Shown: positions 839 through 61,189 of the stretch, piece after piece | Position numbering within the stretch: the first letter of the stretch is position 1 | Layout of the letters: every line of letters starts with the position of its first letter | DNA from: an uncultured Acidimicrobiales bacterium | GTDB lineage: Bacteria; Actinomycetota; Acidimicrobiia; Acidimicrobiales; JAHEJN01 | DNA length: 64,000 bases | NCBI GenBank assembly: GCA_963700995.1 | Contig: CAVOZP010000006.1 | Coordinates: forward strand, 136,006-200,005 | Direction of reading: 5' to 3' | Position numbers and translations under genes: made by a program | The notes under the pieces: generated by a model | What the model saw: only the letters and a program-made list of their open reading frames with translations | The model's database searches: none | What the model was told of the DNA's origin: nothing

Positions 839-2083
839 CTACCGGGAAGTGACGAAATCGGTGACGTCGGGATCTTTGTGGAAGCTGCCACCTTTCATGA
901 TGCCGACGAGCTTGCCGTGGTCCTGCAAGACCGTGATGTCGGCGAGGGGATCGCCGTCGACGAGGATCAGGTCGGCGAGATAGCCGCGTTCCACCTTGCC
1001 GAGCTTGTCGTTCTGCATGATGGCCCCCCCGTGAACCGTCGCCGCCCTGATGGCCTCCATCGGAGTGAAGTCGAGGAGCTCGACGAAGTGCTGGAGGTCG
1101 CGGGCGTTGGTGCCGTGCGGCGTCCATGCAAAGCCGTAATCGCCGCCGGGAAGCACCCGGATGCCTCGACGGTGCATCTCCTTGAGTCCCTCGATGCCGG
1201 CGTCGAGCTCGAGCTTGTAGCCCACCGCCTCGGCCGCCTCCTGGGGAAACCCGAACGCGTCGGCTTCGTAGAGTGAGGCGTACAGCCAGTGCAGCCCCGG
1301 TGCGACGAAGACCTCGTCCTTTCGCTCGGCGATGAGGTCGATGCACGCTTCGTCGGCGTAGCTCATGTGGTAGAAGATGTCGACGCCGTTGCGGGCCGCC
1401 TTCAGGCAGCTCTCCGTGCTGCGGGCATGCGTCGCCACGCGGCGTCCGAGCCGGTTGGCCTCCTCGACGGCCACAGCGATCTCGTCGTCGGTGAGGTAAT
1501 CGTCGCCGGCCCACGCCCGTTGGGTGATCGACTCGCCGCTCTGGATGATCTTGACGATGTCGGCACCGAGCCGGAGCGCCTCGCGCACCGCTTTGCGCAT
1601 CTCCTCGACCCCGCTGACCTGCGTGGAGATACCCGGTACGAGCATGCCCGCGGGCGAGCAGATCTCGCGAACCGACGCGAGATAGCGCGGTCCGGGGATC
1701 ATGCCTGCGTTGATGGCGTCGCGGGTTGCGATGTCGAGCCGCATCTTGGCCGCTGCGGCTCCTACCGCCATCGTGTACCCGGCGTCGAGCAGAATCCGGG
1801 CGGACTCGGCGCACACGAGCACGTGGTCCTCGAGCTCCATCGAGGCGATGCCGTCGAGGTCGCCGCTGTTCCAGCTCAGGTGGGTGTGGGCGTCGCACAG
1901 ACCCGACATGAGCGTTCGGCCCTTGCCGTCGATGACGCGGTCGTCGCTGTCGGGCAGACCGCCGCCTTGTTCCACGGCTACGATCTCGCCGTCGCGGACG
2001 AGGACCTCAGCCCCGAATGGTTCGTCGGCGTTCCCGTCGATGACCTGCACGTTCTTGAATATGACGTCCTCGGTACTGCTCAT
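839..2083 (-). CDS. Metal-dependent amidohydrolase (Xaa-Pro dipeptidase-like family)
   Basis: IDGKGRTLMSGLCDAHTH, ATHA, GGDYG and ADLILVDGDPLADI motifs; GGGGAGA RBS before ATG 2083. Confidence 0.85.
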   Translation of the reverse strand: MSSTEDVIFKNVQVIDGNADEPFGAEVLVRDGEIVAVEQGGGLPDSDDRVIDGKGRTLMSGLCDAHTHLSWNSGDLDGIASMELEDHVLVCAESARILLDAGYTMAVGAAAAKMRLDIATRDAINAGMIPGPRYLASVREICSPAGMLVPGISTQVSGVEEMRKAVREALRLGADIVKIIQSGESITQRAWAGDDYLTDDEIAVAVEEANRLGRRVATHARSTESCLKAARNGVDIFYHMSYADEACIDLIAERKDEVFVAPGLHWLYASLYEADAFGFPQEAAEAVGYKLELDAGIEGLKEMHRRGIRVLPGGDYGFAWTPHGTNARDLQHFVELLDFTPMEAIRAATVHGGAIMQNDKLGKVERGYLADLILVDGDPLADITVLQDHGKLVGIMKGGSFHKDPDVTDFVTSR

Positions 2084-2144
2084 TTGCTTTCTCCCCCGTG
2101 AATGCAGCAGATGCTGCAGAGTGTTGTCGTTGTCGATCGAGTTT

Positions 2145-2915
2145 TCAGCCGAGGAACTCTGCCACCAGTGAGGCGACCTCGACCCCGGCCTCGACGACGG
2201 TCCAGTGCCCGATGCCGTCGATGACATGGACGGCGGCGTCGCCGAACCCGGCGGCGATGTGCTGGGTCTTCTCCGGTGGCGCGATTCCGTCGGCGGTTCC
2301 GGTGATCAGCAGGACCGGACAGGTGATGGCCCCCTGGTCGGCGTCGACGGTGGCGGCCGCCGCCTCGCAGGCAACTGCGTACCCCTCATCGGTCTGTCCG
2401 AGCACGCATTCGCGAACGTATCCGACGATCTCTGGTCGTTCATCCTTCGTCTTGGGACCCGTGCCGGCGTTGGCGATGGTCGGAGCAATCGCTCCGATCG
2501 TCTGGGTCCGAACGGTCGCCGCTCGCTCGCGCAGCCCGTCGCGGCCTGCGTCGGGAAGCTCGCGGATGGGCCCGAGGAGGACGAGCTTGTCGACCCGATC
2601 GGGGTGGCTGGCCGCGAAGGTCTGAACGATGGCCGAACCCATGGAATGGCCGATCACCGACGCCGACTCTGCGCCGACATGATCCAGCACGGCGCCCAGA
2701 TCATCGGCAAACCCCTCGATCGAGACAGGACCGGTGAGCGGACTTCGGCCGTGACCGTTGAGATCGAAGGCGACCATCCGGTGATTCTCGGCCAGTCGGG
2801 CGGTCACGGCGTCGTAGAAGGTGGTGGTCCCACCGAGGCCGTGCACCATCACGACGGTCGGACCGTCGCCTGTGATCTCCAGCCAGAGCTGCTTGCCGTT
2901 GATCTGGGTGAGCAT
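2145..2915 (-). CDS. Alpha/beta hydrolase (3-oxoadipate enol-lactonase-like)
   Basis: VHGLGG, DLNGHGRS, GHSMG nucleophile elbow, C-terminal GHW; AAGGAAGG RBS. Confidence 0.85.
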   Translation of the reverse strand: MLTQINGKQLWLEITGDGPTVVMVHGLGGTTTFYDAVTARLAENHRMVAFDLNGHGRSPLTGPVSIEGFADDLGAVLDHVGAESASVIGHSMGSAIVQTFAASHPDRVDKLVLLGPIRELPDAGRDGLRERAATVRTQTIGAIAPTIANAGTGPKTKDERPEIVGYVRECVLGQTDEGYAVACEAAAATVDADQGAITCPVLLITGTADGIAPPEKTQHIAAGFGDAAVHVIDGIGHWTVVEAGVEVASLVAEFLG

Positions 2916-2935
2916 GCGGGTACCTTCCTTGGGCT

Positions 2936-3796
2936 CTACTTGAACGGGTTCTCGAGGGTTCCGATGTTGGTTATCTCGATCGTCACACGATCGCCGGGTT
3001 GCAGGAACTGCGGGGGATCGAGGCCGATACCCACTCCCGCCGGGGTTCCCGTGGCGATGATGTCGCCGGGGCGGAGCGTGAAACCGGCCGAGATGGTCGC
3101 GATGATGTCGGGAACCGGGAAGATCAGGTCGCAAGTGTTCGCGTGTTGGCGGCGCTCACCGTTCACATAGCTCGTGACCCAGGTGTCGGCGAGGTCGACT
3201 TCGTCATGGGTGACCGCGACCGGACCCATGGGGCAGAAGGTGTCGAGGGTCTTGCCGAGGAGCCATTGCTTGTGTGTCTTCTGGCGGTCTCGGGCAGTGA
3301 CGTCGTTGACGATCGTGTAGCCCCACACGTGGCCCATGGCGTCGTTCGGCGAGATGTCGCGACCGCCAGATCCGATGATCACGGCCAGTTCGGCTTCGTA
3401 GTCGACCATGGAGGTCACGTGCGGCATCAACTCGACGGTCTCGTTGGGCCCGATCACCGACGAAGCGAACTTCGTGAACACGATCGGGTGCTCGGGTTCG
3501 GGCGGTGCTCCGGCGTTGTCGGAGTTGTCGAAGCCGCTGGAGGCGAACTCGATCGCGTGTTCTCGATAGTTCTTGCCGACGCAGAGGACGTTGCGTCGGG
3601 GCTCGGGAATCGGCGCCAGGCGATGAGCGGTCATGTCGTCGATGTGGTCGACGATGTCGATCAGGAGGGGGTCGATGTCGATGACGTCGAGCACCGATAG
3701 GTACGAAGGCGCGAGGAGTCCCAACGACGCTGGCGTTGTAGGGTCCTCGATGGCTACCCGGCGCTCGCCGCGGTACTCGATTGTCGCAAACCGCAT
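2936..3796 (-). CDS. Fumarylacetoacetate hydrolase family protein
   Basis: CVGKNYREH, DYEAEL, NDVTARD, GKTLDTFCPMGP, TGTPAGVG. Confidence 0.9.
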   Translation of the reverse strand: MRFATIEYRGERRVAIEDPTTPASLGLLAPSYLSVLDVIDIDPLLIDIVDHIDDMTAHRLAPIPEPRRNVLCVGKNYREHAIEFASSGFDNSDNAGAPPEPEHPIVFTKFASSVIGPNETVELMPHVTSMVDYEAELAVIIGSGGRDISPNDAMGHVWGYTIVNDVTARDRQKTHKQWLLGKTLDTFCPMGPVAVTHDEVDLADTWVTSYVNGERRQHANTCDLIFPVPDIIATISAGFTLRPGDIIATGTPAGVGIGLDPPQFLQPGDRVTIEITNIGTLENPFK

Positions 3797-47278: not shown

Positions 47279-48295
47279 TCAGTCCGAGGGATGCGTGTTG
47301 GCCATGGTGAATCCGGCTGCTTCGGCTGATTCGGGCGAGTCGAACCAGACCTCGGCGACGGTGGCGCCGTAGTTGCGGCTGTCGGGCCGGTGGTAGAGCA
47401 TCGAGTCGACGTTGCCCTTCACGGGGAAGCCCGCGGGCATGACTCCGCTGTCGAGCGGAGCGTGCGACCCAGTACCGAAGGGGTACAGCCCGCTCGGAAC
47501 CGGGTCAGAGACCGTCGGAGCCCTCCGCTCGACAACGACCGGAGCGCCGATCAGGGCGGCGCCGGACGCCTCGTTGGGGGCGGCCCCTTCGCCCAGGCTG
47601 GGATCGTCGATGGCCAGCCACAACACCACGGCGAGAAGGGCACCGAGGGTGGGGAAGATGAAGAAGGCCCACAGCTGTTCGACGGCGTCGCCACCCGCGA
47701 AGACGGCCATTCCGAGCGATCGGGCAGGGTTCACCGACGTGTTGTTGACCGGGATGGAGATGAGGTGGATGAGGGTGAGGGTCATGCCGATGTGCAGGCC
47801 GAGCACCGCGCCGCTGTAGCCGCGGCGGGTGCTTGACAGCACCGCCAACACCAGCACGGCCGTGAGCAGGATCTCGGTGATGACCATCGGCCAGAAGCCG
47901 AAATACCCGTTGCCCTCGTCCCAGAGATTGGTGGCGAAGTTGAGTGGGTTGGTGTCCCACGCATCGGGGGCGCCAGAGCGGATGGCCCAGATGAGGAAGC
48001 CACCGAGAACCGCACCGACCAGCTGTCCGGCCCAGTAGGCCAATGCCCTGCTCCAGGTGATGGCGCCGTAGGCCAGCATCCCCACCGTTATCGCCGGGTT
48101 GATGTGGGCGCCCGAAACATGACCGACCGTGTAGATCGCAACCAGTACTGCGAGACCGAAGCCGAGCGAGACTGTGAGCACCGCAGCTCCGTCGAGGTAG
48201 CCGGTACCAGCGGCAAGCACGGCGACACCGGGCCCGCCCAGCATCAAAATGGTCGTGCCGATGATCTCGGCGACCAGGATCCGTCCGTTGTTCAT
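47279..48295 (-). CDS. aqpZ: Aquaporin Z-like MIP channel with extra C-terminal domain
   Basis: [13 protein letters not shown] and [19 protein letters not shown]; C-terminal [10 protein letters not shown]...AEVWF...AEAAGF. Confidence 0.9.
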
Positions 48296-48409
48296 GGTTC
48301 TCGACTCCGGGTCGTGGGTGGACATCTGCGGGGAACAGTAGGTCGGCCCCTTGTGGACGTCGACCCGACGGCGTTGCGAACCGGGCGGCCGTGCTCCAGG
48401 CTCGTTGTC

Positions 48410-52205: not shown

Positions 52206-52974
52206 ATGATTCATCTCGCGCCCGTGAAGGTGTTGCTCGGCGTCGTGCTGACTGTGCTCGGCGCCGGTGGCGTTGCTGCCGCCGTCAATGGAGAGATACC
52301 GGCCGAGTCAGATCCCTGGAGCCCCAGCTCAGTGCTCTACGGCGTTTCGGAGCAGTCCACCGCCGATGGCACTCTCCCGGCTGACAATGACGGCACGGAG
52401 GAAGCCGGCGAGGAGGAGGTCGAGGCGGAGATCGACGCCACCGATGGCTTGTCCGATGATGAGCTGGCGGTGTTGTGTGCCGAGGCGGGTTCGCACGGTG
52501 AGTACGTGTCGCAGGTGGCTCGTGATCGGGTGACCGAGACCGACGGCAACCACGGTGCGCGGGTGCGTGAAGCAGCGCAGTCCGACTGCGGCAAGAGCCG
52601 ACGGCGACGAAGAACCTCCATCCGGCGAGGCGGAGGTCGACGCCACCGATGGCTTGTCCGATGAGGAGCTCGAGGTGTTGTGTGCCGAGGCCGGCTCGCA
52701 CGGTGAGTACGTGTCGCAGGTGGCTCGTGATCGGGTGACCGAGACCGACGGCAATCACGGTGCGCGCGTTCGCGACGCCGCCCAGTCCGATTGCGGAAAG
52801 TCCGAGTTCGCCGGCGAGGACGAGGCCGAGTCAAACGAGGCCGCGGAATCCGACATCGACCATCCCGCAAGCGGCAACGGCAATGGCAATGGCAATGGCG
52901 GTAGTAACGGCAACGGCAACGGCGGTGGTAACGGCAACGGTCAGGGTCGTGGCCAGGACAAGAAGAGCGACTAG
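52206..52974 (+). CDS. Secreted acidic protein with duplicated Cys/His domain and Gly-Asn tail; frameshift near 52600
   Basis: Hydrophobic N-terminus; near-identical repeats at about 52422-52595 and 52627-52800; GNGNG tail. Confidence 0.7.
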
Positions 52975-52996: not shown

Positions 52997-53749
52997 TCAC
53001 TGCGCCGGCCGGCGTCGCGCGCCGCATCCGAGAGCGCCGGTGACGCGTACCGGCAGGCCGATGAGACCGAGGTGATCGAGCAGGGTGTCGTGGACACCGC
53101 CGAGCTGGTAGCCCGACAAGCCGTCGTTGGCCAGGCGTAGCTCGACGCTCTGCGCCGCGCAGCCCGTTTCGATGAGGGCGAAGCGGTCGCCGCGAGCGCC
53201 GTACTTGCGGCGAAGCTCGCCGAGGTGGCCGACGAAGACGAGTGTGAGCGGCGGGATGCTGTGGTCGGGCTCGAGGCTGAGCAGCCGGCGAAGGTCCGCG
53301 TCGGCCGGAATGGCCCCGACATCGTTCACCGCATGGTTGTCAGCGTCGTAGCGGATGACCCGTCGGGCGCACGGGCCGAGAACGTTGTGGCCGATCGCGT
53401 AGGTGGCCATTGCGCTGAGACCTCCGGCCGACGGCACCACGCGTCGACCAGACCGGTCGACACCGGTGGCGGCGAGCACGCGGGCCACCGTCCGAGCCGA
53501 CAGAGGAGCGGCACCGAACTCGCGTCGGCTGCGCCGTGACTCGAGACGGCGTTGGAATCGGTCGCGCTCCGGTGCCAGCGCGGTAGTCGTACCGGCGTGG
53601 GTGAGCGGATGAATGGGGTCATCGGCAGGTTCGAAACTCGTGAGTCGGCGCACGAATCGGTCGGCGTTCGTGTCGTCGAGGGCGGTAGCCGACCAGAAAT
53701 CGTCGGCGACATCGAGCTCGAAATCGGTGTGGGACTGGTCGATCGTCAT
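52997..53749 (-). CDS. SagB/ThcOx-type FMN-dependent azoline dehydrogenase
   Basis: RRSRREF, PSAGGL, KYGARGDRFALIETGCAAQ (Lys-Tyr motif); directly downstream of YcaO. Confidence 0.85.
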   Translation of the reverse strand: MTIDQSHTDFELDVADDFWSATALDDTNADRFVRRLTSFEPADDPIHPLTHAGTTTALAPERDRFQRRLESRRSRREFGAAPLSARTVARVLAATGVDRSGRRVVPSAGGLSAMATYAIGHNVLGPCARRVIRYDADNHAVNDVGAIPADADLRRLLSLEPDHSIPPLTLVFVGHLGELRRKYGARGDRFALIETGCAAQSVELRLANDGLSGYQLGGVHDTLLDHLGLIGLPVRVTGALGCGARRRPAQ

Positions 53750-53753
53750 GAGG

Positions 53754-54989
53754 TCATCCGAGCGGGTGGGGGTGTGGCGATGGGAACGGGCCGAGCGGTT
53801 CGAGGTCGGGGTAGCGCCAGTTGCGGTCGGCGGTGGTGCCGCCGAGAAAGGGCAACCGGTGGTCGTGATGGATCGGCGTGAGCGAAGGGGCGAGCACTCG
53901 CACGACCCGCAGTCCGATCTGACGAAGATCGACCGTGGTGAGCTCGCGGTAGTAGAGATCGATGCCCGCCTCGGCGAGGTGGCGGACGAGGTTTGACAGC
54001 TCGGCCGCGGCATCACCCGCGACTGCGGCAACCGGTTCCGGCCACGGCTTCGACGCCAGGATTGGTATGCCAGCGACCCGATCGGGGGAGGCGGTGTAGA
54101 AGACGGCGTGGCGGTCGAAGTCGGTCATCGCCTCGGGAGCGAGTCCGACCAGCTCGGGGTGTCGGGCGAGGTGATGGCCCGCGAACACGGTGCCCTGCAG
54201 GCACTCGAGCTCGGCCTTGGCCACCGCGTCGGCCCAGGTGCGGCGGCAGGCGAGACCGATCGAGAACCGGGGATGCCCTTCGAGCGGGGCCACACCGAGC
54301 ACCGCTGCGACCACGTGCGGCGACCACGCCGGAGTGAGGTCGAAGGCACGCAGCCAGCCGCCGAACTCGTCGCGGACGTCGGCGACAGGCGCGTAGGTCA
54401 CCTCGCGTCCCGGGAGCTGGTGCAGCCACGTGCTCATGAAGGCATCTCGTTCGATCAGCTCCTGGGCGGCCCGCAACAGCGCCAGCTCGGGCGAGAACGC
54501 GGCAGCGAGCCCCGATGACGTCGACAGTGCGCCGTAGGTTGGAGCGAGACCCACCAACGCCGATGGCACAAACGCCGGCCGGTTGTCGGCCAGGCGCCAC
54601 ACCGGCGTGAGGCTCGGCGCTGCGCCGTACCCGACGTCGGCCAGGAGACGATCGTTCTGTTGGCGGGAGCTGTGGAGGGTGAAGTCGTCGAACCCGAGCC
54701 GACGCTCGGCGGGGGCGCCGGCCCACGCCACGGTGGGCAACTCGACCACGTTGGCGGCGTAGCGCTCCAGGGCTTCGGCGATGGCGGCCGCCTCCGCCTG
54801 CTCGAGGGTGGTGCCCACCCCGCCGCCGGCGCTGGCCAGAGCCGTCGCGTCTTCTCGCGGAACGCTGGCATGGAACACGCCCGGCGGATCGGCGGGCAGG
54901 CGAGGTACTCCCGTCGGGGCCAACACGATGCCGTGCCGTCGACCGAGGCCCGAGCGAAGACGTTCGAGCGGTTCGGTCGCGGCGATCAT
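53754..54989 (-). CDS. YcaO cyclodehydratase (azoline-forming type)
   Basis: AEALERY, STSSGLAA, ELIERDAF ATP/Mg motifs; Pro-rich C-terminus PFPSPHPHPLG. Confidence 0.92.
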   Translation of the reverse strand: MIAATEPLERLRSGLGRRHGIVLAPTGVPRLPADPPGVFHASVPREDATALASAGGGVGTTLEQAEAAAIAEALERYAANVVELPTVAWAGAPAERRLGFDDFTLHSSRQQNDRLLADVGYGAAPSLTPVWRLADNRPAFVPSALVGLAPTYGALSTSSGLAAAFSPELALLRAAQELIERDAFMSTWLHQLPGREVTYAPVADVRDEFGGWLRAFDLTPAWSPHVVAAVLGVAPLEGHPRFSIGLACRRTWADAVAKAELECLQGTVFAGHHLARHPELVGLAPEAMTDFDRHAVFYTASPDRVAGIPILASKPWPEPVAAVAGDAAAELSNLVRHLAEAGIDLYYRELTTVDLRQIGLRVVRVLAPSLTPIHHDHRLPFLGGTTADRNWRYPDLEPLGPFPSPHPHPLG

Positions 54990-55612
54990 GAGTCGGGTTC
55001 GGCCGGTCGCGGTGGTGGCGCGGGGGGTGCTTCGGTCGGGGCAACGCCGGTTGCGGGCGGCGGTTGAAGCCATGGCGGCAACGAGGACGGCGGTGGCTCA
55101 CCCGGGTCGAAAGCAGTGGCCCGGAGCGCCAGCCAGACCCAGAACGGGATGGTGAGCCAGAAGAAGCCGATCGTGAACAGCACGGCGAAGATCTCGACGA
55201 GCATGGCCCCGCCCGTGGCAACCGGCAAGGCGATGGCCATCAGCGCCGCCGATCGAGGGCGTCCACTCGCGGTCAGGCGGATGGCGAAGAGCATGGCGCC
55301 GGTCAGCGCTATGAACGTCGCGACGACACCGAAGAGGCTGTCGATCTGTTCCTCTGCGGCAAGCGCTACTGCCACCACCGCCGCGAGGATGGGAGCGAGA
55401 ACGGCTGCCGTCACGAGCGTCCATCGAGTTCTCTGCGACGGGGGCGGCTCGGACCCGCTGAGGTCGCGGGCCACGATGCGGCCGGCAACCACTGCCGCGG
55501 ACGTGATCGAGGCGAGGCAGCAACAGCAACAGCAGCAGCAACTCGGGGTGGCGACGGTGGTCGGGCTTTCGAGCTCGTCGAACGGGGTATCCAGCTCGGC
55601 GACGACGATCAC
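54986..55612 (-). CDS. Integral membrane protein with N-terminal octa-cysteine tract; candidate RiPP precursor fusion
   Basis: AELDTPFDELE-SPTTVATPS-C8, then about 4 TM helices; 4-nt overlaps with both neighbours. Confidence 0.75.
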   Translation of the reverse strand: MIVVAELDTPFDELESPTTVATPSCCCCCCCCLASITSAAVVAGRIVARDLSGSEPPPSQRTRWTLVTAAVLAPILAAVVAVALAAEEQIDSLFGVVATFIALTGAMLFAIRLTASGRPRSAALMAIALPVATGGAMLVEIFAVLFTIGFFWLTIPFWVWLALRATAFDPGEPPPSSLPPWLQPPPATGVAPTEAPPAPPPRPAEPDS

Positions 55613-56346
55613 GACACCGTCCAGGGGAGGTCCAGACGTCCGCCGGGCGGAGCAAGGTCACAGGTCGGACAACCGGGAGACATGAGCAGATGGTTGCGGG
55701 TGCTGGTCATGGTGTTGAGGTCGAAGGCGATGGTGGCATTCATCAGCGGCGAAGCGCCGTGGTGAATCAGATCGACGTGGCGACGGGTGAGCGCCGTCAC
55801 GAGGTCGACCTCCAGCGTCGCACGGGGCTCGGCGGGCTGAGGCGATACCGCCCAGCGTCGGGCCAGCAACCGCTCGAGGCACGTCTCGCAGGCAGTGATG
55901 CCCGGCACCACGAACGGCCCGAACACCACCGTGTGTTCGGCGCCGACGTCGACGATCAGGCGCGGGAGCACCGTCTCGACCGGAGCGCCGGGCCCGCAGC
56001 GGACCACGACGACGAGGTCGGCATCGGCGACCGTTCCTCCGATGGAATCGGCGAGTGGTTCGGCCGCGGGGTGGGTGGCGAGCACCGTGGCTCGGAGGGG
56101 CGCGGACGGTTCGGCAAGCGCGGGCACCAGCGCACCGAGTTGCACCAGGTGGCGGACCAAGTCGTCGGCGCCGGCATCGACCGGGCTTCCGTCGGCCCAG
56201 GCCCGCACCGACGCCACCTGTTCGGCCGTGAGCCCATCGATGGCCACCTGGCGGTCGGCACCAGCCGACACCGCCAGGCCCCGGTCGGTCGGGGCGGCCG
56301 TCCACTGTTTCGACCAGCGCAAACGGCCAGCAGGGACGCCTTCCAT
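55609..56346 (-). CDS. TOMM E1-like (ThiF-like) leader-binding cyclodehydratase partner
   Basis: FGPFVVPGITACETCLERL and C-terminal PGCPTC zinc motifs; GGGAGG RBS; in operon with YcaO. Confidence 0.8.
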   Translation of the reverse strand: MEGVPAGRLRWSKQWTAAPTDRGLAVSAGADRQVAIDGLTAEQVASVRAWADGSPVDAGADDLVRHLVQLGALVPALAEPSAPLRATVLATHPAAEPLADSIGGTVADADLVVVVRCGPGAPVETVLPRLIVDVGAEHTVVFGPFVVPGITACETCLERLLARRWAVSPQPAEPRATLEVDLVTALTRRHVDLIHHGASPLMNATIAFDLNTMTSTRNHLLMSPGCPTCDLAPPGGRLDLPWTVS

Positions 56347-56433: not shown

Positions 56434-56874
56434 TCAGCCGGTTTCGAGGTAGGCGGTTGAGGAGGCGGTGACGAGCTTGGCCGAAGGGCCGCCGGGCACG
56501 GCGGGGGCGAAGATGTAGTCGACGGTGCGACTCAGCGTGACCTCGACACCGACGCGTCCGCCGTCGCTGACGAAGGCCACGGTGACCGTTGCGTTCAGGC
56601 CCTCGGCCGCCACGCTCGCCGCCGCGGCGTCGTTGGCTACCCCGAAATCGAGGCTCTCGTCGAGCGGGACGCCTGCCCGCAACGCGTCGACGTCGATGGC
56701 TAGGGCGACCGCATCGTTGGCTGCCGACGAAGCCGCCGACAGCAGCTCTCGCCGTTCGAGATACAGGTGGGAGAAGTCGATGGTGATCGCGGCGAGGATG
56801 ATCACGATGAGCACGCCTGCCGGCAGCAGCATCATCACGCTGCCACGATCGCCTCGCCGCCGCGAGCTCAGCAC
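56434..56874 (-). CDS. Tad pilus TadG/TadE-like pseudopilin
   Basis: DRG cleavage-like site, hydrophobic helix, ELLSAASSAA; last gene of the tad operon. Confidence 0.7.
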   Translation of the reverse strand: MLSSRRRGDRGSVMMLLPAGVLIVIILAAITIDFSHLYLERRELLSAASSAANDAVALAIDVDALRAGVPLDESLDFGVANDAAAASVAAEGLNATVTVAFVSDGGRVGVEVTLSRTVDYIFAPAVPGGPSAKLVTASSTAYLETG

Positions 56875-57350
56875 AGCGAATCCTCACCGAGGCCGGCCCG
56901 GTACGGATCGACGATCTCACTGTGGGTTGAGGTGACCGTGATACCCGATCCCCAGCCACCGAGCAGAGGTACCGACACCGCTCGGGTCGTGTACCGGTAG
57001 GTCACCGCCACTCGGGCGCACCGGGCGAACCCCCCTCCGATGTCGGAGCCCTGGACGACGACATCGGAGGTGAGTCGATCGGTGTGACCGACGTGGTTCT
57101 GGAAAGCCTCGTTGCCGATGGCGATCGCACCCGCGGCGTCGCCGTTCGACTCGACGAGGTACCTGACCGCCTCGCGGCTGGCCGAGTCGGTGGCCATCTT
57201 CGCGTCGACCACCGCCCACGCATTCGCAATGAGCAGCGCCCCGCTGACGAAGATGAGCAGGCCGAAGGGAATGGCCTCGATCCCGCCGACAACGCCTCTT
57301 TCGTTCTGGCGAGGTCGGGTGCCGGCCAGGAACCGGCTACGGAGGAGCAT
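56868..57350 (-). CDS. TadE-like pseudopilin
   Basis: NERG plus hydrophobic helix, ASREAVR. Confidence 0.7.
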   Translation of the reverse strand: MLLRSRFLAGTRPRQNERGVVGGIEAIPFGLLIFVSGALLIANAWAVVDAKMATDSASREAVRYLVESNGDAAGAIAIGNEAFQNHVGHTDRLTSDVVVQGSDIGGGFARCARVAVTYRYTTRAVSVPLLGGWGSGITVTSTHSEIVDPYRAGLGEDSLC

Positions 57351-57774
57351 CACGGAACTCCTCGATTCGTACCGTGACCGATTTGTCGATGTCGAGGCCG
57401 GTCGCATCGGTGAGTCCGGGTGGCAGCAGCGACGGTGCCCGGCCGACAACGGCGACGGTGACTGTCTCGGTGCCGATGGTCCACGTGACCGACACGTCGT
57501 TGCCCCAAGCTCCGAGGGCCGAACGGAGCTCGGATTCAGCTCGGGTGGCTGCGCCGCCACGGTTGCCCTCGGCGTTCACCGAGGCGACTGTCGCCGCAGC
57601 GTCGTAGGCCGCCCCGGCGGTCAGCGAGGTGGCATAGAGATGCAACAGGAGGTGGATGCCGAGGAACATGAACAGGAGGAAGATGATGAATCCAACCGTG
57701 GTTCCGAGCAGGCCCGTGCCGGATTCGTCACGGGCGCGTTCACCCCAACCGTTGTCAGGGTTCACCGGCAGCAT
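57337..57774 (-). CDS. TadE-like pseudopilin
   Basis: RDESG plus hydrophobic helix, AAYDAA. Confidence 0.7.
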   Translation of the reverse strand: MLPVNPDNGWGERARDESGTGLLGTTVGFIIFLLFMFLGIHLLLHLYATSLTAGAAYDAAATVASVNAEGNRGGAATRAESELRSALGAWGNDVSVTWTIGTETVTVAVVGRAPSLLPPGLTDATGLDIDKSVTVRIEEFRDAPP

Positions 57775-57806
57775 GGATCGACGCCTCTCGGGGCTCCGAC
57801 GACGGA

Positions 57807-58034
57807 TCAGCCGCCGATCTGATCGACCTGGGTCTCGGCTTTGGTGCTGGCCGAATCGAAGAGCGCCTTGAATGCCACCCAGGCGGCCACCCCGAGGAAC
57901 GCCATGATCAACACGGCGATGGCGGCCGAGATCACGCCCTCGCCTCGTTCGTCACGGGCACGCTTCGCGAGATCGACGGTGAGACAACGCACGAAGACAT
58001 CGAGTCGGATCGCATTGGTTGTGAGGGTGTTCAC
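57807..58034 (-). CDS. flp: Flp-type major pilin
   Basis: 75 aa, RDERG plus hydrophobic helix, directly after tadC; AGGAGG RBS. Confidence 0.75.
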   Translation of the reverse strand: MNTLTTNAIRLDVFVRCLTVDLAKRARDERGEGVISAAIAVLIMAFLGVAAWVAFKALFDSASTKAETQVDQIGG

Positions 58035-58059
58035 GGGGACCTCCTGGGTGGTAAGTGTG

Positions 58060-58969
58060 TCACGCATCGGTGAAAAGGCGTAAGGCTTCGACGAAGGGAA
58101 CAGCGAGGAACAGCACTCCAGGCACGAGGGTGGCCACGGTGACGGGGATCCAGACCTGCTGTCCCCGACGCTCGATGGTGGCCAGTAGCTCGCGGTGGAC
58201 CTCGCGTCGGATCGCGTGGGCCTCGTCGTGGATGAGCCGACCGAGATCGACTGCGCTTCGGTTGAGCGCAAGGATCGACGTGAGCCGGTCGAGGGCGTCG
58301 ACGTCGGCGAGCTCCGGCCCACTCGGCGAGTGCCTGTGCCTCGGAGAGGCCCTGGCGAACACGCGAGATCACCAGGCGAAGATCTTCCGCGACTACGCCG
58401 TCTCCCCGGGTGGCAATCCGCTGCAGGGCCGAGCCCAACGAGTAGCCGGCCGAGAGCAGCATTCCCAGTTGCTCGGCAATCACCGGCAGCTCGAGGAAGA
58501 GGCGACGCTGTCGTTTCTCCGAAGCCGACGCCACGTGTTGCTCCTGCACGAGGAAGGCGAGGATCGGCGACCCGATGATGAGAAGAAGGGAGACCACGAG
58601 TGGGGGTTGGACGGCAACGGCGAACAGCGCCGACAGGCCACCGATCGCCAGGCACACCCCGACCTGGCGGGTTCGGAACGAGGCGACATCGAGGGGAGAG
58701 TGGATCCGGCGAAGGCGGACCGAGAGCTCCTCGCTGACTCCGAAGGTGCGGGCCAGTGACGTGCCGATGCTCTGGGAGAGCGGTGCGACGACATCGTGGA
58801 ACGACTCGACGCTCAGCAGCCCGGCTCGCCCGTGACGGCTGCTCACGTTCGGCGAGTACTGCCGGAGCCGGTCCGCGAGCGGACGCCGACTGAACCAACG
58901 CAACTCTGCCATCATCAGCACCAGACCGACCCACAGCAACAAACCCGAGATCACGACGAGGCGACTCAC
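58060..58969 (-). CDS. tadC: Tad pilus inner membrane protein TadC; frameshift near 58320
   Basis: ELPVIAEQLGMLLSAG, QGLSEAQAL, VWIPVTVATLVPG. Confidence 0.82.
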
Positions 58970-59870
58970 GAGACCTCGTCTCGTCCGGCCAGCACCCGCT
59001 GCTCTTGGGGGAGCCGCATGAAATACCCGGCCCACATCCAGCAGATCACGATGACGGCGAGTGCGAAGACGACGATGGTCTGCCCGATCGCCGTGCTGTA
59101 GGCAGCCCGACCGTTTCCGACCGACATGCCGGCAAGTGCCATTCCGGCCGGAACCAGCAGCACGAACCATCGGGCGAATTTCACCCCGGCCTGCTTGGCG
59201 ATCGCGTCCTTGCGGCCCTGCACATCGAGGACGCGATCCTCGGCCAGCGACTGGAGGCGATGGTCGAGATCGGTGCCGCCGATCTCCTGGGCCACCAGCA
59301 GTGTCTCGAGCGCCGCATCGGCGGTCGAGTCGGCCAGCTCGCGTTTGAGGACGGCAACGGTGCGGGCGAAGTCGGTCGTGATGAGCCACTCCCGCCGTCC
59401 GGCGGCGAAGGCCGATTGCATCTCGTCGGGCGCCCGCTCGCCGATCTCGAAGAGGGCCTGAGGAATCGAGCGGCCGAGTGACCCGGTGAGGACCCGCATC
59501 TCCTCGATCATGCGCGGCCATGCCTCCTGGGCGCGAACCCGGCGTTTCTGGCGCCGCAGCCGGTAGCTCGCAAGGGGGAAGGTGGCGGCGAAGAGCCCCA
59601 CCACGAGGGCCGGGACCGCTCCGCCGAACACAGTGAAGGCGACCAGAAAGCCGAGCACGAACAACATGGCGACCACGGCACCGAACTGGTTGAGGTCGAT
59701 TCCCTCGAGGCCGGCCTGGGTGAGCCATTGCTCGATTTGGTGAGACGCTGACTGCTTGCGCCGGGCTCGCGGCTCGGGGCCAGGCTGGTACCCGTCCAGC
59801 CGACGGCCAGCGCGGTGTAGAGGTAGTACACGCCGAGGGCACCGACCAGAGCGAGAACGAGGCCGATCAC
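58966..59870 (-). CDS. tadB: Tad pilus inner membrane protein TadB; frameshift near 59780
   Basis: EAWPRMIEEM...GRSIPQAL, IGGTDL, AYSTAIGQ. Confidence 0.82.
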
Positions 59871-61189
59871 AACGCACCCTCGGCTGCGCTCGGATCGATG
59901 TCGAGCAGCGCGTGTAGGTCGAAGCCACGCTCTTCGATCTGACGACCGGCCCGCACGGGCAGCTCTCCCGTCCAGCCGAGCTGGACGCCGGGCGCCGGCC
60001 GGCGAAAGATCTCCGAGATGGTGAACTGGGTGCCGTCTGCTGCGCTCTGGAGGTCTTCCACGGCAATGACCGACGACACCTGAGGGCCCTCCGCTGCTGC
60101 GGGTGCAATGCACAACGATGTCGACCGAGTCCGACACCAGGGTGTTGAGCGCCGACATGGGTAGTTCGTTCGACGTGTCGGAGAGCTGGCAGATGAAGCG
60201 GAGCCGGGACAGGGCCTGACGGGCCGAGCCGGCGTGGATGGTGGTGTATCCGGTGACGCCCGAAGACAACGTGAGCAGGAGTGGTAGCGCTTCTCGGTCT
60301 CGGACTTCGCCCACGATCGCGACATCGGGCGCCATTCGCAGGAATCCGGCGACCAGGCGGCGAAGGTCGACGGCAGAGCGCTCGGCTCGTGCGGGTCGGG
60401 TCTGCATGCTGGCGACGTTGGGCACCATCACGTCGGCCTCGAACACCTCTTCGGCGATGACGACGCGAAGCGACGGATCGAGCTCGGCGCAACAGCACGA
60501 CATGAGCGTGGTCTTGCCAGCGCCAGGTGCACCGGCGAATACGATTGAGAGCCGTGACCGCACGCAGGCGGAGAGGAATCGGGCGACCTCGGCCGAGAGC
60601 ATGTCGCGATCGACGAGCTCGCCCAGGTTGCGAAACGGCACGCCGGTGAACTTGCGGATGTTGACCATCGTGTGGCTGCCGCGAGCGACATCGGCATGCA
60701 CGATGTGCAGACGAGCGCCGCTGTCGAGCTGGGCGTCTTGCAGGCCCTCGCTCGGATCGAGCTTTCGGTGCGACCGCGACGACTCGTCGAGCACCTTGGT
60801 GAGTACCCGGAGCACGTGCTCGTCGTCGTGGAAGACCTCGTCGTTGTAGCCGCTACCGCCCGTGTGGCGTTTCACGAAGATCGCGTCCGGAGCGTTGATC
60901 ATGATCTCCCAGACATCGTCGTCGTCGAGGAGCGGACCGAGCGGTCCGTAACCGACCAGATTGCGATAGGCGCGATCGGCGACGAGCGGTGCGTCGGAGA
61001 GCTCGTATGGCCGCTGGCCCCGCTTGAATTCGTCGTTCCAGCGGCTGATCTCGTCGTCGATCAGGGCACGGATCGCTGCGGGTCCCTCGAACGCGGTTCA
61101 TATCGAGCGCCATTGTTTCGGCCCGGTCCTGCACGCGCCTGCTCTTCGATGAGTGCGAGTGGAGACAACTCTTCGGCGTGCTCGCTCAC
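59867..61189 (-). CDS. tadA: Tad pilus assembly ATPase CpaF/TadA; several frameshifts
   Basis: EIMINAPD, NIRKF, GAPGAGKT, LRMAPDVAIVGEVR, TTIHAGS. Confidence 0.92.

Follow-up and report, generated by a model that had tools for sequence, protein, structure and literature searches.

A YcaO operon of an uncultured Acidimicrobiales bacterium with a poly-cysteine integral membrane protein as its probable substrate

Introduction

YcaO systems that form azoles are regarded as producers of small peptides for secretion, among them antibiotics and cytolysins. What might such a system modify where the gene lying among its enzymes codes for an integral membrane protein? The question is raised by positions 56346 to 52997 (minus strand) of a 64,000-nucleotide stretch of contig CAVOZP010000006.1, which belongs to the assembly of an uncultured Acidimicrobiales bacterium (GCA_963700995.1); the whole stretch is referred to here as the window, and positions are counted from its first letter. 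Four tightly packed open reading frames (ORFs) follow one another, specifying an E1-like protein, a membrane protein with eight consecutive cysteines (the poly-Cys membrane protein), a YcaO protein and a SagB-type dehydrogenase. The first-pass annotation of this DNA had proposed that the embedded membrane protein is itself the substrate. We consider this probable, at roughly 70%: the protein would be a cis-encoded substrate which receives about eight contiguous thiazoles. The support is that of comparative genomics, in that leader, Cys run and membrane body are all retained, beside the enzymes, by relatives from other families of the order and from other phyla.

Gene organization and the three enzymes

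Read directly in the sequence, the stop codon of the E1-like gene and the start codon of the poly-Cys gene overlap in GTGA, the stop of the latter and the start of the YcaO gene overlap in ATGA, and four nucleotides (cctc) separate the YcaO stop from the ATG of the SagB-type gene. The gene order, overlaps and gap claimed in the first-pass annotation are thus exact. The genome, which is 58% complete and in 17 contigs, carries a single YcaO.

The YcaO protein matches PF02624 [3.6e-39; 135.4 bits, cut-off 25.7] over positions 2–324 of the 325 in the profile, and TruD weakly. Against TIGR03604 (SagD) it scores 132.7 bits, which lies under the curated cut-off of 219.25. The dehydrogenase matches PF00881, the nitroreductase fold [46.7 bits, cut-off 23.5], and the PDB oxidoreductase 3hj9 [4.6e-7], and it too stays under the cut-off of its subfamily model, TIGR03605 (SagB), with 41.3 bits against 78.4. 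Since both subfamily models score below their curated cut-offs the two enzymes are, by their profile scores, divergent members of the thiazole/oxazole-modified microcin (TOMM) synthetase families. A Pro-rich C-terminus and a Lys-Tyr motif are marks of azoline-forming YcaOs and of TOMM dehydrogenases, respectively. The window YcaO ends in FPSPHPHPLG, and this tail is kept in all 54 full-length relatives, every one of which ends in P-H-[PGA]-L-G and nearly all in FP[SN]PxPHPLG; the Lys-Tyr pair is present in the window protein and in 55 of 56 relatives.

The E1-like protein was identified through TIGR03882, “TOMM precursor leader peptide-binding protein” [39.2 bits, cut-off 36.9]. A profile of this protein and its relatives matches the E1-like parts of TruD and LynD, as well as MccB, in the PDB. 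Its AlphaFold2 model (predicted local distance difference test, pLDDT, 87.3) has strands and helices at the N-terminus followed by an E1-like fold, for which Foldseek returned TruD [1.3e-10] and then LynD, MccB and McbB (down to 4.8e-8). All four are leader-binding E1-like proteins of peptide-modifying systems. In an alignment of the E1-like relatives (A4) C153, C156 and C226 are invariant and C229 nearly so. The E1-like partner, the Pro-rich YcaO tail and the Lys-Tyr pair named in the first-pass annotation are all present; TIGR03882, PF02624 and PF00881 score above cut-off, TIGR03605 below its own, and the motifs are conserved in relatives.

The poly-Cys membrane protein

The 208-residue product opens with 24 mostly polar residues, the cysteines C25–C32 and 12 uncharged residues. 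A positive loop leads from there to four hydrophobic helices, and the chain closes with a Pro-rich tail. The hydropathy profile and an AlphaFold2 model, the latter built upon an alignment of 89 sequences (A3), agree on four transmembrane helices with one helix (helix 0) ahead of them. Mean pLDDT is 84.6; over residues 31–170 the block means run from 84 to 98 and mostly exceed 90, while residues 1–30 are modelled at low confidence, the leader region being presumably disordered. No model of Pfam or NCBIfam covers the protein, Foldseek found no match in the PDB at E ≤ 0.001, and VIA-align against 48,161 chains returned generic helical bundles only (best Z 7.5). In the ESM Atlas its best match is a “hypothetical protein” cluster (0.82).

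A word-indexed search with the window protein gave three close clusters only. Among 1.84 billion representative proteins, a profile of six poly-Cys membrane proteins picked out 335 representative clusters at E ≤ 1e-3, of which 163 remain at ≤ 1e-10 and 12 at ≤ 1e-30. The Cys run was counted in 152 family proteins (150 listed profile matches and two from the word-indexed search) and occurs in 147, with an uninterrupted maximum of seven in 52 members, eight in 67 and nine in seven; the five members without it begin inside the profile and are N-terminal fragments. For the 139 members caught by a regular expression the core holds eight cysteines in 82 cases, seven in 31 and nine in 18, the leader has a median length of 25 residues, and 85 lack cysteine outside the core. 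A Pro-rich tail like that of the window protein (PPP, PPxPPP), taken as at least 20% Pro over the last 40 residues, is found in 61 of the 139. Family proteins are 145–320 residues long, and their source names, where retrievable, are all “hypothetical protein.” One 69-residue partial member, P0154, bears the precomputed Pfam tag PF27786.1. Neither the Pfam copy used here nor the searchable literature contains this accession, so that the family or its N-terminus may have been recently catalogued by Pfam.

Conservation is concentrated ahead of the membrane body. In alignment A3, T22 and P23 are present in 89 of 89 sequences, F/Y11 in 88 and A21 in 84; conservation of the Cys columns reaches 90% or more, position 24 is S or T, and L7, T9, D12 and V20 are common. 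The consensus reads roughly L-P-T-Q-F-D-(7)-V-A-T-P-[ST]-C8-[LVI]-x-[TS]. Mean column identity in the membrane body is 17%, yet Glu140 in helix 3 is kept in 86 of 89 sequences and is the sole nearly invariant polar residue there; P75, G116, P156 and R167 are frequent. The streptolysin S precursor model TIGR03602 gave weak matches in 20 of the 89 members (best E 1e-4), and the three that were inspected score 16–18 bits, against a cut-off of 35, where the leader ends and the Cys run follows. The window protein itself has no match to this model at E ≤ 0.01. A complex prediction of the E1-like protein (A4) with residues 1–50 of the membrane protein (A3) reached a best score of 0.22 against a mark of 0.32 and, run without controls, speaks neither for nor against an association.

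At about 69% G+C, and with numerous long shadow ORFs in the region, one might suspect that the 208-residue frame is spurious or mis-assembled. Contigs from four independent metagenome runs span the gene with zero indels (for example contig X2 record 10, covering 54876–56255, with two substitutions and no gaps), so that the fused reading frame is not an assembly error; nor is it a shadow ORF of GC-rich DNA, because the family also occurs in low-GC lineages such as a Saccharibacteria metagenome-assembled genome (MAG; locus L023). Compared with a congener copy, the ratio of nonsynonymous to synonymous substitution rates (dN/dS) is 0.25 overall. By segment it comes to 0.09 (leader and core), 0.39 (membrane part) and 0.18 (tail); these are rough estimates from a single pair. 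Together with homologs in hundreds of clusters and the confident model these results effectively refute a spurious frame. As it is in addition the only Cys-rich ORF at 47–62 kb, the gene is, to judge from the sequences compared, real and under purifying selection.

Linkage and gene order in relatives

Two genomes of the same order, each of another family, are instructive. In the first (G057; 99% complete) two tandem poly-Cys membrane genes, with runs of C7 and CCSC7, lie between the E1-like and YcaO genes; in the second (G237) one gene, for a product of 249 residues, occupies the same place. The stop of the E1-like gene is coupled to the poly-Cys start in all three of these distant loci, through GTGA in the window and ATGA in the other two.

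A DNA pattern scan for A-T-P-[ST]-C7, using one genome per prokaryotic species, gave 83 stretches, of which 80 loci were listed. Five were dropped from the tallies: L069 and L092 match through a repeat or by chance, and in L021, L057 and L082 (from Nocardioides and two Actinomycetota MAGs) the 'R-A-T-P-C8/9' string stands in what seems to be the alternative frame of a different conserved gene. Downstream of it the translations of these three are alike. Among the 75 genuine loci listed, one or more of the three enzymes lie inside the 8-kb block in 72, the remaining three being contig edges or blocks which end just downstream. All three enzymes occur in 50, on the same strand every time, and 48 of these complete loci have the order E1–poly-Cys–YcaO–SagB. 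Exceptions to this order are L051, in which the poly-Cys gene precedes the E1 gene, and L097, where two copies follow SagB; in the truncated locus L047 one copy follows SagB. The poly-Cys gene moves inside the cluster yet stays linked to it. The first-pass annotation had looked to conservation of a poly-Cys transmembrane gene between the E1-like and YcaO genes, and it is this arrangement that 48 of the 50 complete loci display. Tandem duplicates occur in two loci, G057 and L097; tandem copies are common for precursors of peptides that are ribosomally synthesized and modified post-translationally (RiPPs). The closest named relative of the window is locus L036, also labelled as Acidimicrobiales, with proteins 80–87% identical.

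For the 27 loci outside Pseudonocardiales neighbors were compared by stop-to-stop ORF clustering, a procedure which merges adjacent genes and antisense shadows and was used for these loci only. The recurring neighbors are the three enzymes alone (22, 22 and 19 of 27 loci); genes of protease, ABC transporter or immunity type are in no case common to more than four of the 27, and the few shared ones are antisense shadows of the enzymes. Pseudonocardiales-type loci have two further neighbors, located by direct tblastn: upstream of the module a MerR-family regulator, in 42 of 80 loci, and downstream, in 41 of 80, a phospholipase A2 of the secreted prokaryotic type (PF09056). These flanks were seen in loci of the Lentzea, Actinokineospora, Actinosynnema and Saccharothrix type, e.g. 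at 1806–3032 and 6098–6673 of L096. Because these genomes are close kin, the synteny does not constitute independent functional evidence.

By label, the carriers comprise 39 Lentzea records, Saccharothrix, Actinokineospora, Actinosynnema, Amycolatopsis and many Acidimicrobiales/Acidimicrobiia MAGs, together with one MAG each under the names Solirubrobacterales, Saccharibacteria, Desulfovibrio and Gemmatimonadales; a single partial family protein is labelled as coming from a Clostridiales MAG. Many of the carriers are actinomycetes in culture. The genus to which the Lentzea loci belong has one copy in 46 of its 51 species genomes, and the Saccharibacteria genome which holds the module measures 1.1 Mb. 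Within the order of the window organism, YcaO relatives at E ≤ 1e-10 occur in 8 of 301 genomes and at E ≤ 1e-60 in five, its own included.

Is there another precursor?

The first-pass annotation reported no free small precursor, protease or exporter in or beside the operon, and on both counts the wider search bears it out. Between 47 and 62 kb of the window there is no other Cys-rich small ORF, off-frame noise apart. Of the protein searches for short stand-alone forms of leader plus core, one gave no match and another truncated fragments only; of its two short matches one is named “partial” in its source and has a 154-residue cluster mate, and the other lies on an 847-bp contig. Among the flanking genes scanned, which are part of the ORFs, no protease or exporter adjoins the module: these neighbors are Tad/Flp pilus genes, an alcohol dehydrogenase (ADH), an aquaporin and proteins without assignment. 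This agrees with the lack of any such conserved gene in the 27 loci described above.

The genome has a second (TGY)7 site, at about 3776–3796 of locus L101 (G000:C3:325000-333000), which was considered as a precursor and rejected as an off-frame reading of a repeat. Its (TGC/TGT)7 tract lies at the 3' end of a minus-strand transglutaminase-like ORF which ends in seven glutamines.

One might alternatively regard the poly-Cys protein as a scaffold or as a thiolate metal or redox site (a metallothionein-like Cys8, or an Fe-S ligand), with the true substrate peptide encoded elsewhere. The incompleteness of the genome leaves room for such a peptide, and the MerR-family gene which precedes the module in 42 of the 80 loci is suggestive, since some regulators of this family sense metals or redox stress. 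We nevertheless think this very improbable. The leader-like region, with its invariant T-P, is the most conserved part of the protein (dN/dS 0.09 with the core), the gene is adjacent and translationally coupled to that of an E1-like leader-binding protein, no alternative small ORF rich in Cys, Ser or Thr exists at 47–62 kb, and the sole other (TGY)7 site of the genome is the repeat, in an unrelated ORF, just described.

The membrane protein as probable substrate

The membrane protein is read as the substrate because its leader is constrained, its core varies little in length, its gene is coupled to the E1-like gene and linked to those of YcaO and SagB, tandem copies occur, and no other candidate was found. 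In enzymes of the LynD, TruD and Mcb type a winged helix at the N-terminus binds the leader, after which Cys, Ser and Thr downstream of it are modified. Enzyme chemistry, leader binding, topology and product fate are what we infer for the present system, the chemistry being assigned on account of family membership and by analogy with characterized synthetases composed of B, C and D proteins.

We would suggest the following sequence of events. The 208-residue protein inserts via its four helices, its N-terminal 32 residues and Pro-rich tail presumably remaining cytoplasmic. The N-terminal winged-helix part of the E1-like protein would bind the conserved leader (L-x-T-x-F-D ... V-A-T-P-S), whereupon YcaO, using adenosine triphosphate (ATP), would cyclodehydrate Cys25–Cys32 to thiazolines and the SagB-type flavoprotein, dependent upon flavin mononucleotide (FMN), would oxidize these to thiazoles. 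The predicted outcome is a contiguous run of about eight thiazoles, with a mass change of about −160 Da, just ahead of helix 0.

The topology is based upon charge counts across the 89 family sequences. Loop 45–63 averages 2.9 K+R, loop 117–121 is positive and the tail has 4.2 K+R; loop 87–92 is acidic with few K/R. On this distribution loops 45–63 and 117–121 and the tail should lie inside and loop 87–92 outside, which should place the Cys run at the cytoplasmic face, within reach of soluble enzymes.

Several points weigh against the proposal. The Cys run and the 12 residues behind it form a 20-residue uncharged stretch across the family (0.00 K/R and 0.03 D/E per sequence). Unmodified, it is as long as a transmembrane helix and could insert as a fifth such segment, which would leave the leader extracellular. 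The leader would then be cut off from cytoplasmic enzymes dependent upon ATP and FMN, unless these act before insertion; either modification precedes insertion, or the segment with the Cys run sits at the membrane interface, as it may. Moreover, with the genome 58% complete, a short precursor encoded in trans is possible in the window organism. The SagD and SagB models stay under their cut-offs, as given above, and by these scores the enzymes are divergent. Lastly, the view that the product is retained leans mostly upon the absence of linked protease and exporter genes, which is a weak argument.

Retention or release of the predicted polythiazole

If the membrane protein is the substrate, its polythiazole might stay on the protein or be released. 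In the latter event the protein would be a membrane-tethered precursor from which unlinked housekeeping proteases remove the leader and cut behind the core, freeing a short and strongly hydrophobic polythiazole, a membrane-active toxin or bacteriocin of the streptolysin S type; possible roles of the four-helix body would be those of carrier, self-protection or export aid. There are features of the family which recall such toxins, namely the weak TIGR03602 matches in 20 of 89 members, located at the leader/Cys junction where inspected, the tandem precursor copies of two loci, a variable gene order, and the patchy occurrence in the order of the window organism, with close YcaO relatives (E ≤ 1e-60) in five of 301 genomes; all are typical of RiPP toxin clusters. 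Set against these are the lack of a conserved protease, CAAX-type immunity protein or ABC exporter in the 27 loci outside Pseudonocardiales, and the lack of a conserved cleavage motif or linker behind the core, helix 0 starting right after the last Cys with pLDDT above 90. A membrane body under purifying selection, with its near-invariant Glu, and one copy in nearly every species genome of the genus with the Lentzea loci, which resembles a vertically inherited cellular function, likewise speak against release. We therefore take release to be unlikely, though less so than the scaffold or metal-site alternative.

Within the substrate model retention of the polythiazole is somewhat favored. The grounds are those just named, that is, no linker or cleavage motif after the core, a helix 0 which belongs to a confidently modelled bundle, purifying selection with the near-invariant Glu, no linked protease or exporter, and near-universal single copies in one genus, to which can be added the 1.1-Mb Saccharibacteria carrier. 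A retained polythiazole would stay covalently bound as a rigid rod, hydrophobic and non-hydrogen-bonding, in the cytoplasmic leaflet or at its surface; it would be a modification borne by the protein and no secreted peptide. That it is never released, so that there exists a natural class of membrane proteins in which a four-helix bundle, with its buried Glu, carries a genetically encoded and enzymatically installed run of about eight conjugated thiazoles, is a tentative proposal to which we would give rather less than an even chance.

Comparison with known systems

The streptolysin S and related cytolysin TOMMs (SagA modified by SagBCD) are among the closest known systems. There, as here, the E1-like (C), YcaO (D) and FMN dehydrogenase (B) proteins are discrete, and SagA-type substrates have a short N-terminal leader followed by a contiguous, Cys-dominated heterocyclizable run. 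According to the accessible part of Cox et al. 2015 (PMC4603692) cytolysin cores carry 10 or more contiguous heterocyclizable residues. Unlike SagA, the “precursor” considered here is an integral membrane protein of 145–320 residues with a four-helix body and a different leader motif; and unlike the sag cluster, the 27 loci outside Pseudonocardiales conserve neither a SagE-like protease/immunity protein nor export genes of the SagFGHI type.

The E1-like model resembles McbB, of the microcin B17 synthetase McbBCD, and LynD/TruD, which the profile matches as well. These enzymes act upon soluble peptides of roughly 40–100 residues that are later cleaved and exported, whereas the proposed target here is a membrane protein. 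Cyanobactin heterocyclases combine an E1-like and a YcaO part in one fused protein; in the present operon the two are encoded separately, the E1-like one being short (245 residues).

A YcaO which acts on a full-size protein is known, in that YcaO-TfuA forms the thioglycine of McrA. The window YcaO scores 34 bits against TIGR03266 (“YcaO-related McrA-glycine thioamidation protein”), far under the cut-off of 365. The McrA system involves thioamidation, a TfuA partner and a soluble enzyme, in contrast to the E1-like and SagB partners, which point to azole formation, and the proposed membrane-protein target here. The engineered cyclodehydratase/dehydrogenase pair MicD-F/ArtGox can introduce thiazol(in)es into intact, folded proteins, at loops and in linkers, as described by Walker et al. 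2022 (PMC9052802); this is a laboratory redirection of peptide enzymes, while the present family would be natural and dedicated, and as a natural case new, with about eight contiguous thiazoles on a membrane protein.

The “mobilisin” TOMM clusters of actinobacteria, with B, C and D genes only and no precursor identified bioinformatically, are also covered by the accessible part of Cox et al. 2015 (PMC4603692). Compared by that description only, they have a fused cyclodehydratase and come from Mobiluncus and Rhodococcus, whereas C and D are separate here, and neither genus is among the 80 listed loci of the pattern scan. The same part of that paper makes no mention of membrane-protein substrates, Lentzea or its relatives. 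In the searchable literature, outside which most subscription journals lie, no paper was found that describes a membrane protein as the substrate of a YcaO or azole system, or a membrane precursor of the poly-Cys kind. The enzymes are of a known kind, the TOMM or linear azole peptide synthetases; the substrate class is the new part.

Features and neighboring genes

The positions of the four genes, and of the segments of the proposed substrate, are collected in Table 1.

Table 1. Genes of the operon and segments of the poly-Cys membrane protein, by position in the window
Feature	Position	Strand	Remarks and basis
E1-like / RiPP recognition element (RRE)-type leader-binding partner (“C protein”)	55609..56346	-	245 residues, two CxxC pairs, conserved LPW C-terminus; TIGR03882
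Poly-Cys membrane protein, proposed substrate	54986..55612	-	208 residues, GTG start; family profile, ORF reading
Leader-like region, residues 1–24 of the membrane protein	55541..55612	-	Column counts, alignment A3
Core, eight consecutive Cys codons C25–C32, proposed thiazole sites	55517..55540	-	Codons read directly
Helix 0 (residues 33–52) and four transmembrane helices (60–86, 93–116, 119–146, 150–165)	55118..55516	-	AlphaFold2, hydropathy
Glu140 codon (GAG), transmembrane helix 3	55193..55195	-	Alignment A3, sequence reading
Pro-rich tail, residues 166–208, predicted cytoplasmic	54989..55117	-	Translation, family charge counts
YcaO cyclodehydratase (“D protein”)	53754..54989	-	411 residues from the ATG overlapping the preceding stop; PF02624
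SagB-type FMN dehydrogenase (“B protein”)	52997..53749	-	250 residues; PF00881

Directly upstream of the module, at 56434–60902 of the same strand, is a Tad/Flp pilus operon with a TadE/G-like protein (PF13400), T2SSF-like TadB/C proteins and a CpaF/T2SSE ATPase. The ATPase ORF (59508–60902) matches T2SSE over residues 3–246 of 464 only and is overlapped by an ORF at 58966–60498; a frameshift or mis-called boundaries are possible. On the plus strand, at 52206–52974, a pair of ORFs, of 152 and 139 residues, overlap in different frames, and each holds a near-identical repeat of about 55 residues (D-A-T-D-G-L-S-D ... S-D-C-G-K-S). A Gly-Asn repeat closes the second. Pfam gives no match, and the pair may represent one frameshifted secreted protein with two repeats. 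The aquaporin, of the MIP family [PF00230, 1.6e-41; 47279–48300, minus strand], has a C-terminal extension of about 110 residues past the channel domain.

Significance

If the proposal is correct this would be the first natural backbone heterocyclization of a membrane protein. It would also explain “orphan” clusters which have B, C and D genes only, since the tools for finding precursors look only for short ORFs. The spread of the family, with at least 335 sequence clusters, 46 of 51 genomes of one genus and, by label, several phyla, supports its importance. That the Cys run is held at 7–9 across phyla suggests that its length is itself functional, and a rod of 7–9 thiazoles could have a role in membrane structure, in redox or light chemistry, or in cation binding. 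Were the polythiazole retained, the cell would possess a membrane “cofactor” made from protein, a rigid heteroaromatic rod of about bilayer length which could conduct electrons, absorb ultraviolet light, bind cations or order lipids, and the backbone chemistry of the RiPP type would extend from secreted peptides to the membrane proteome.

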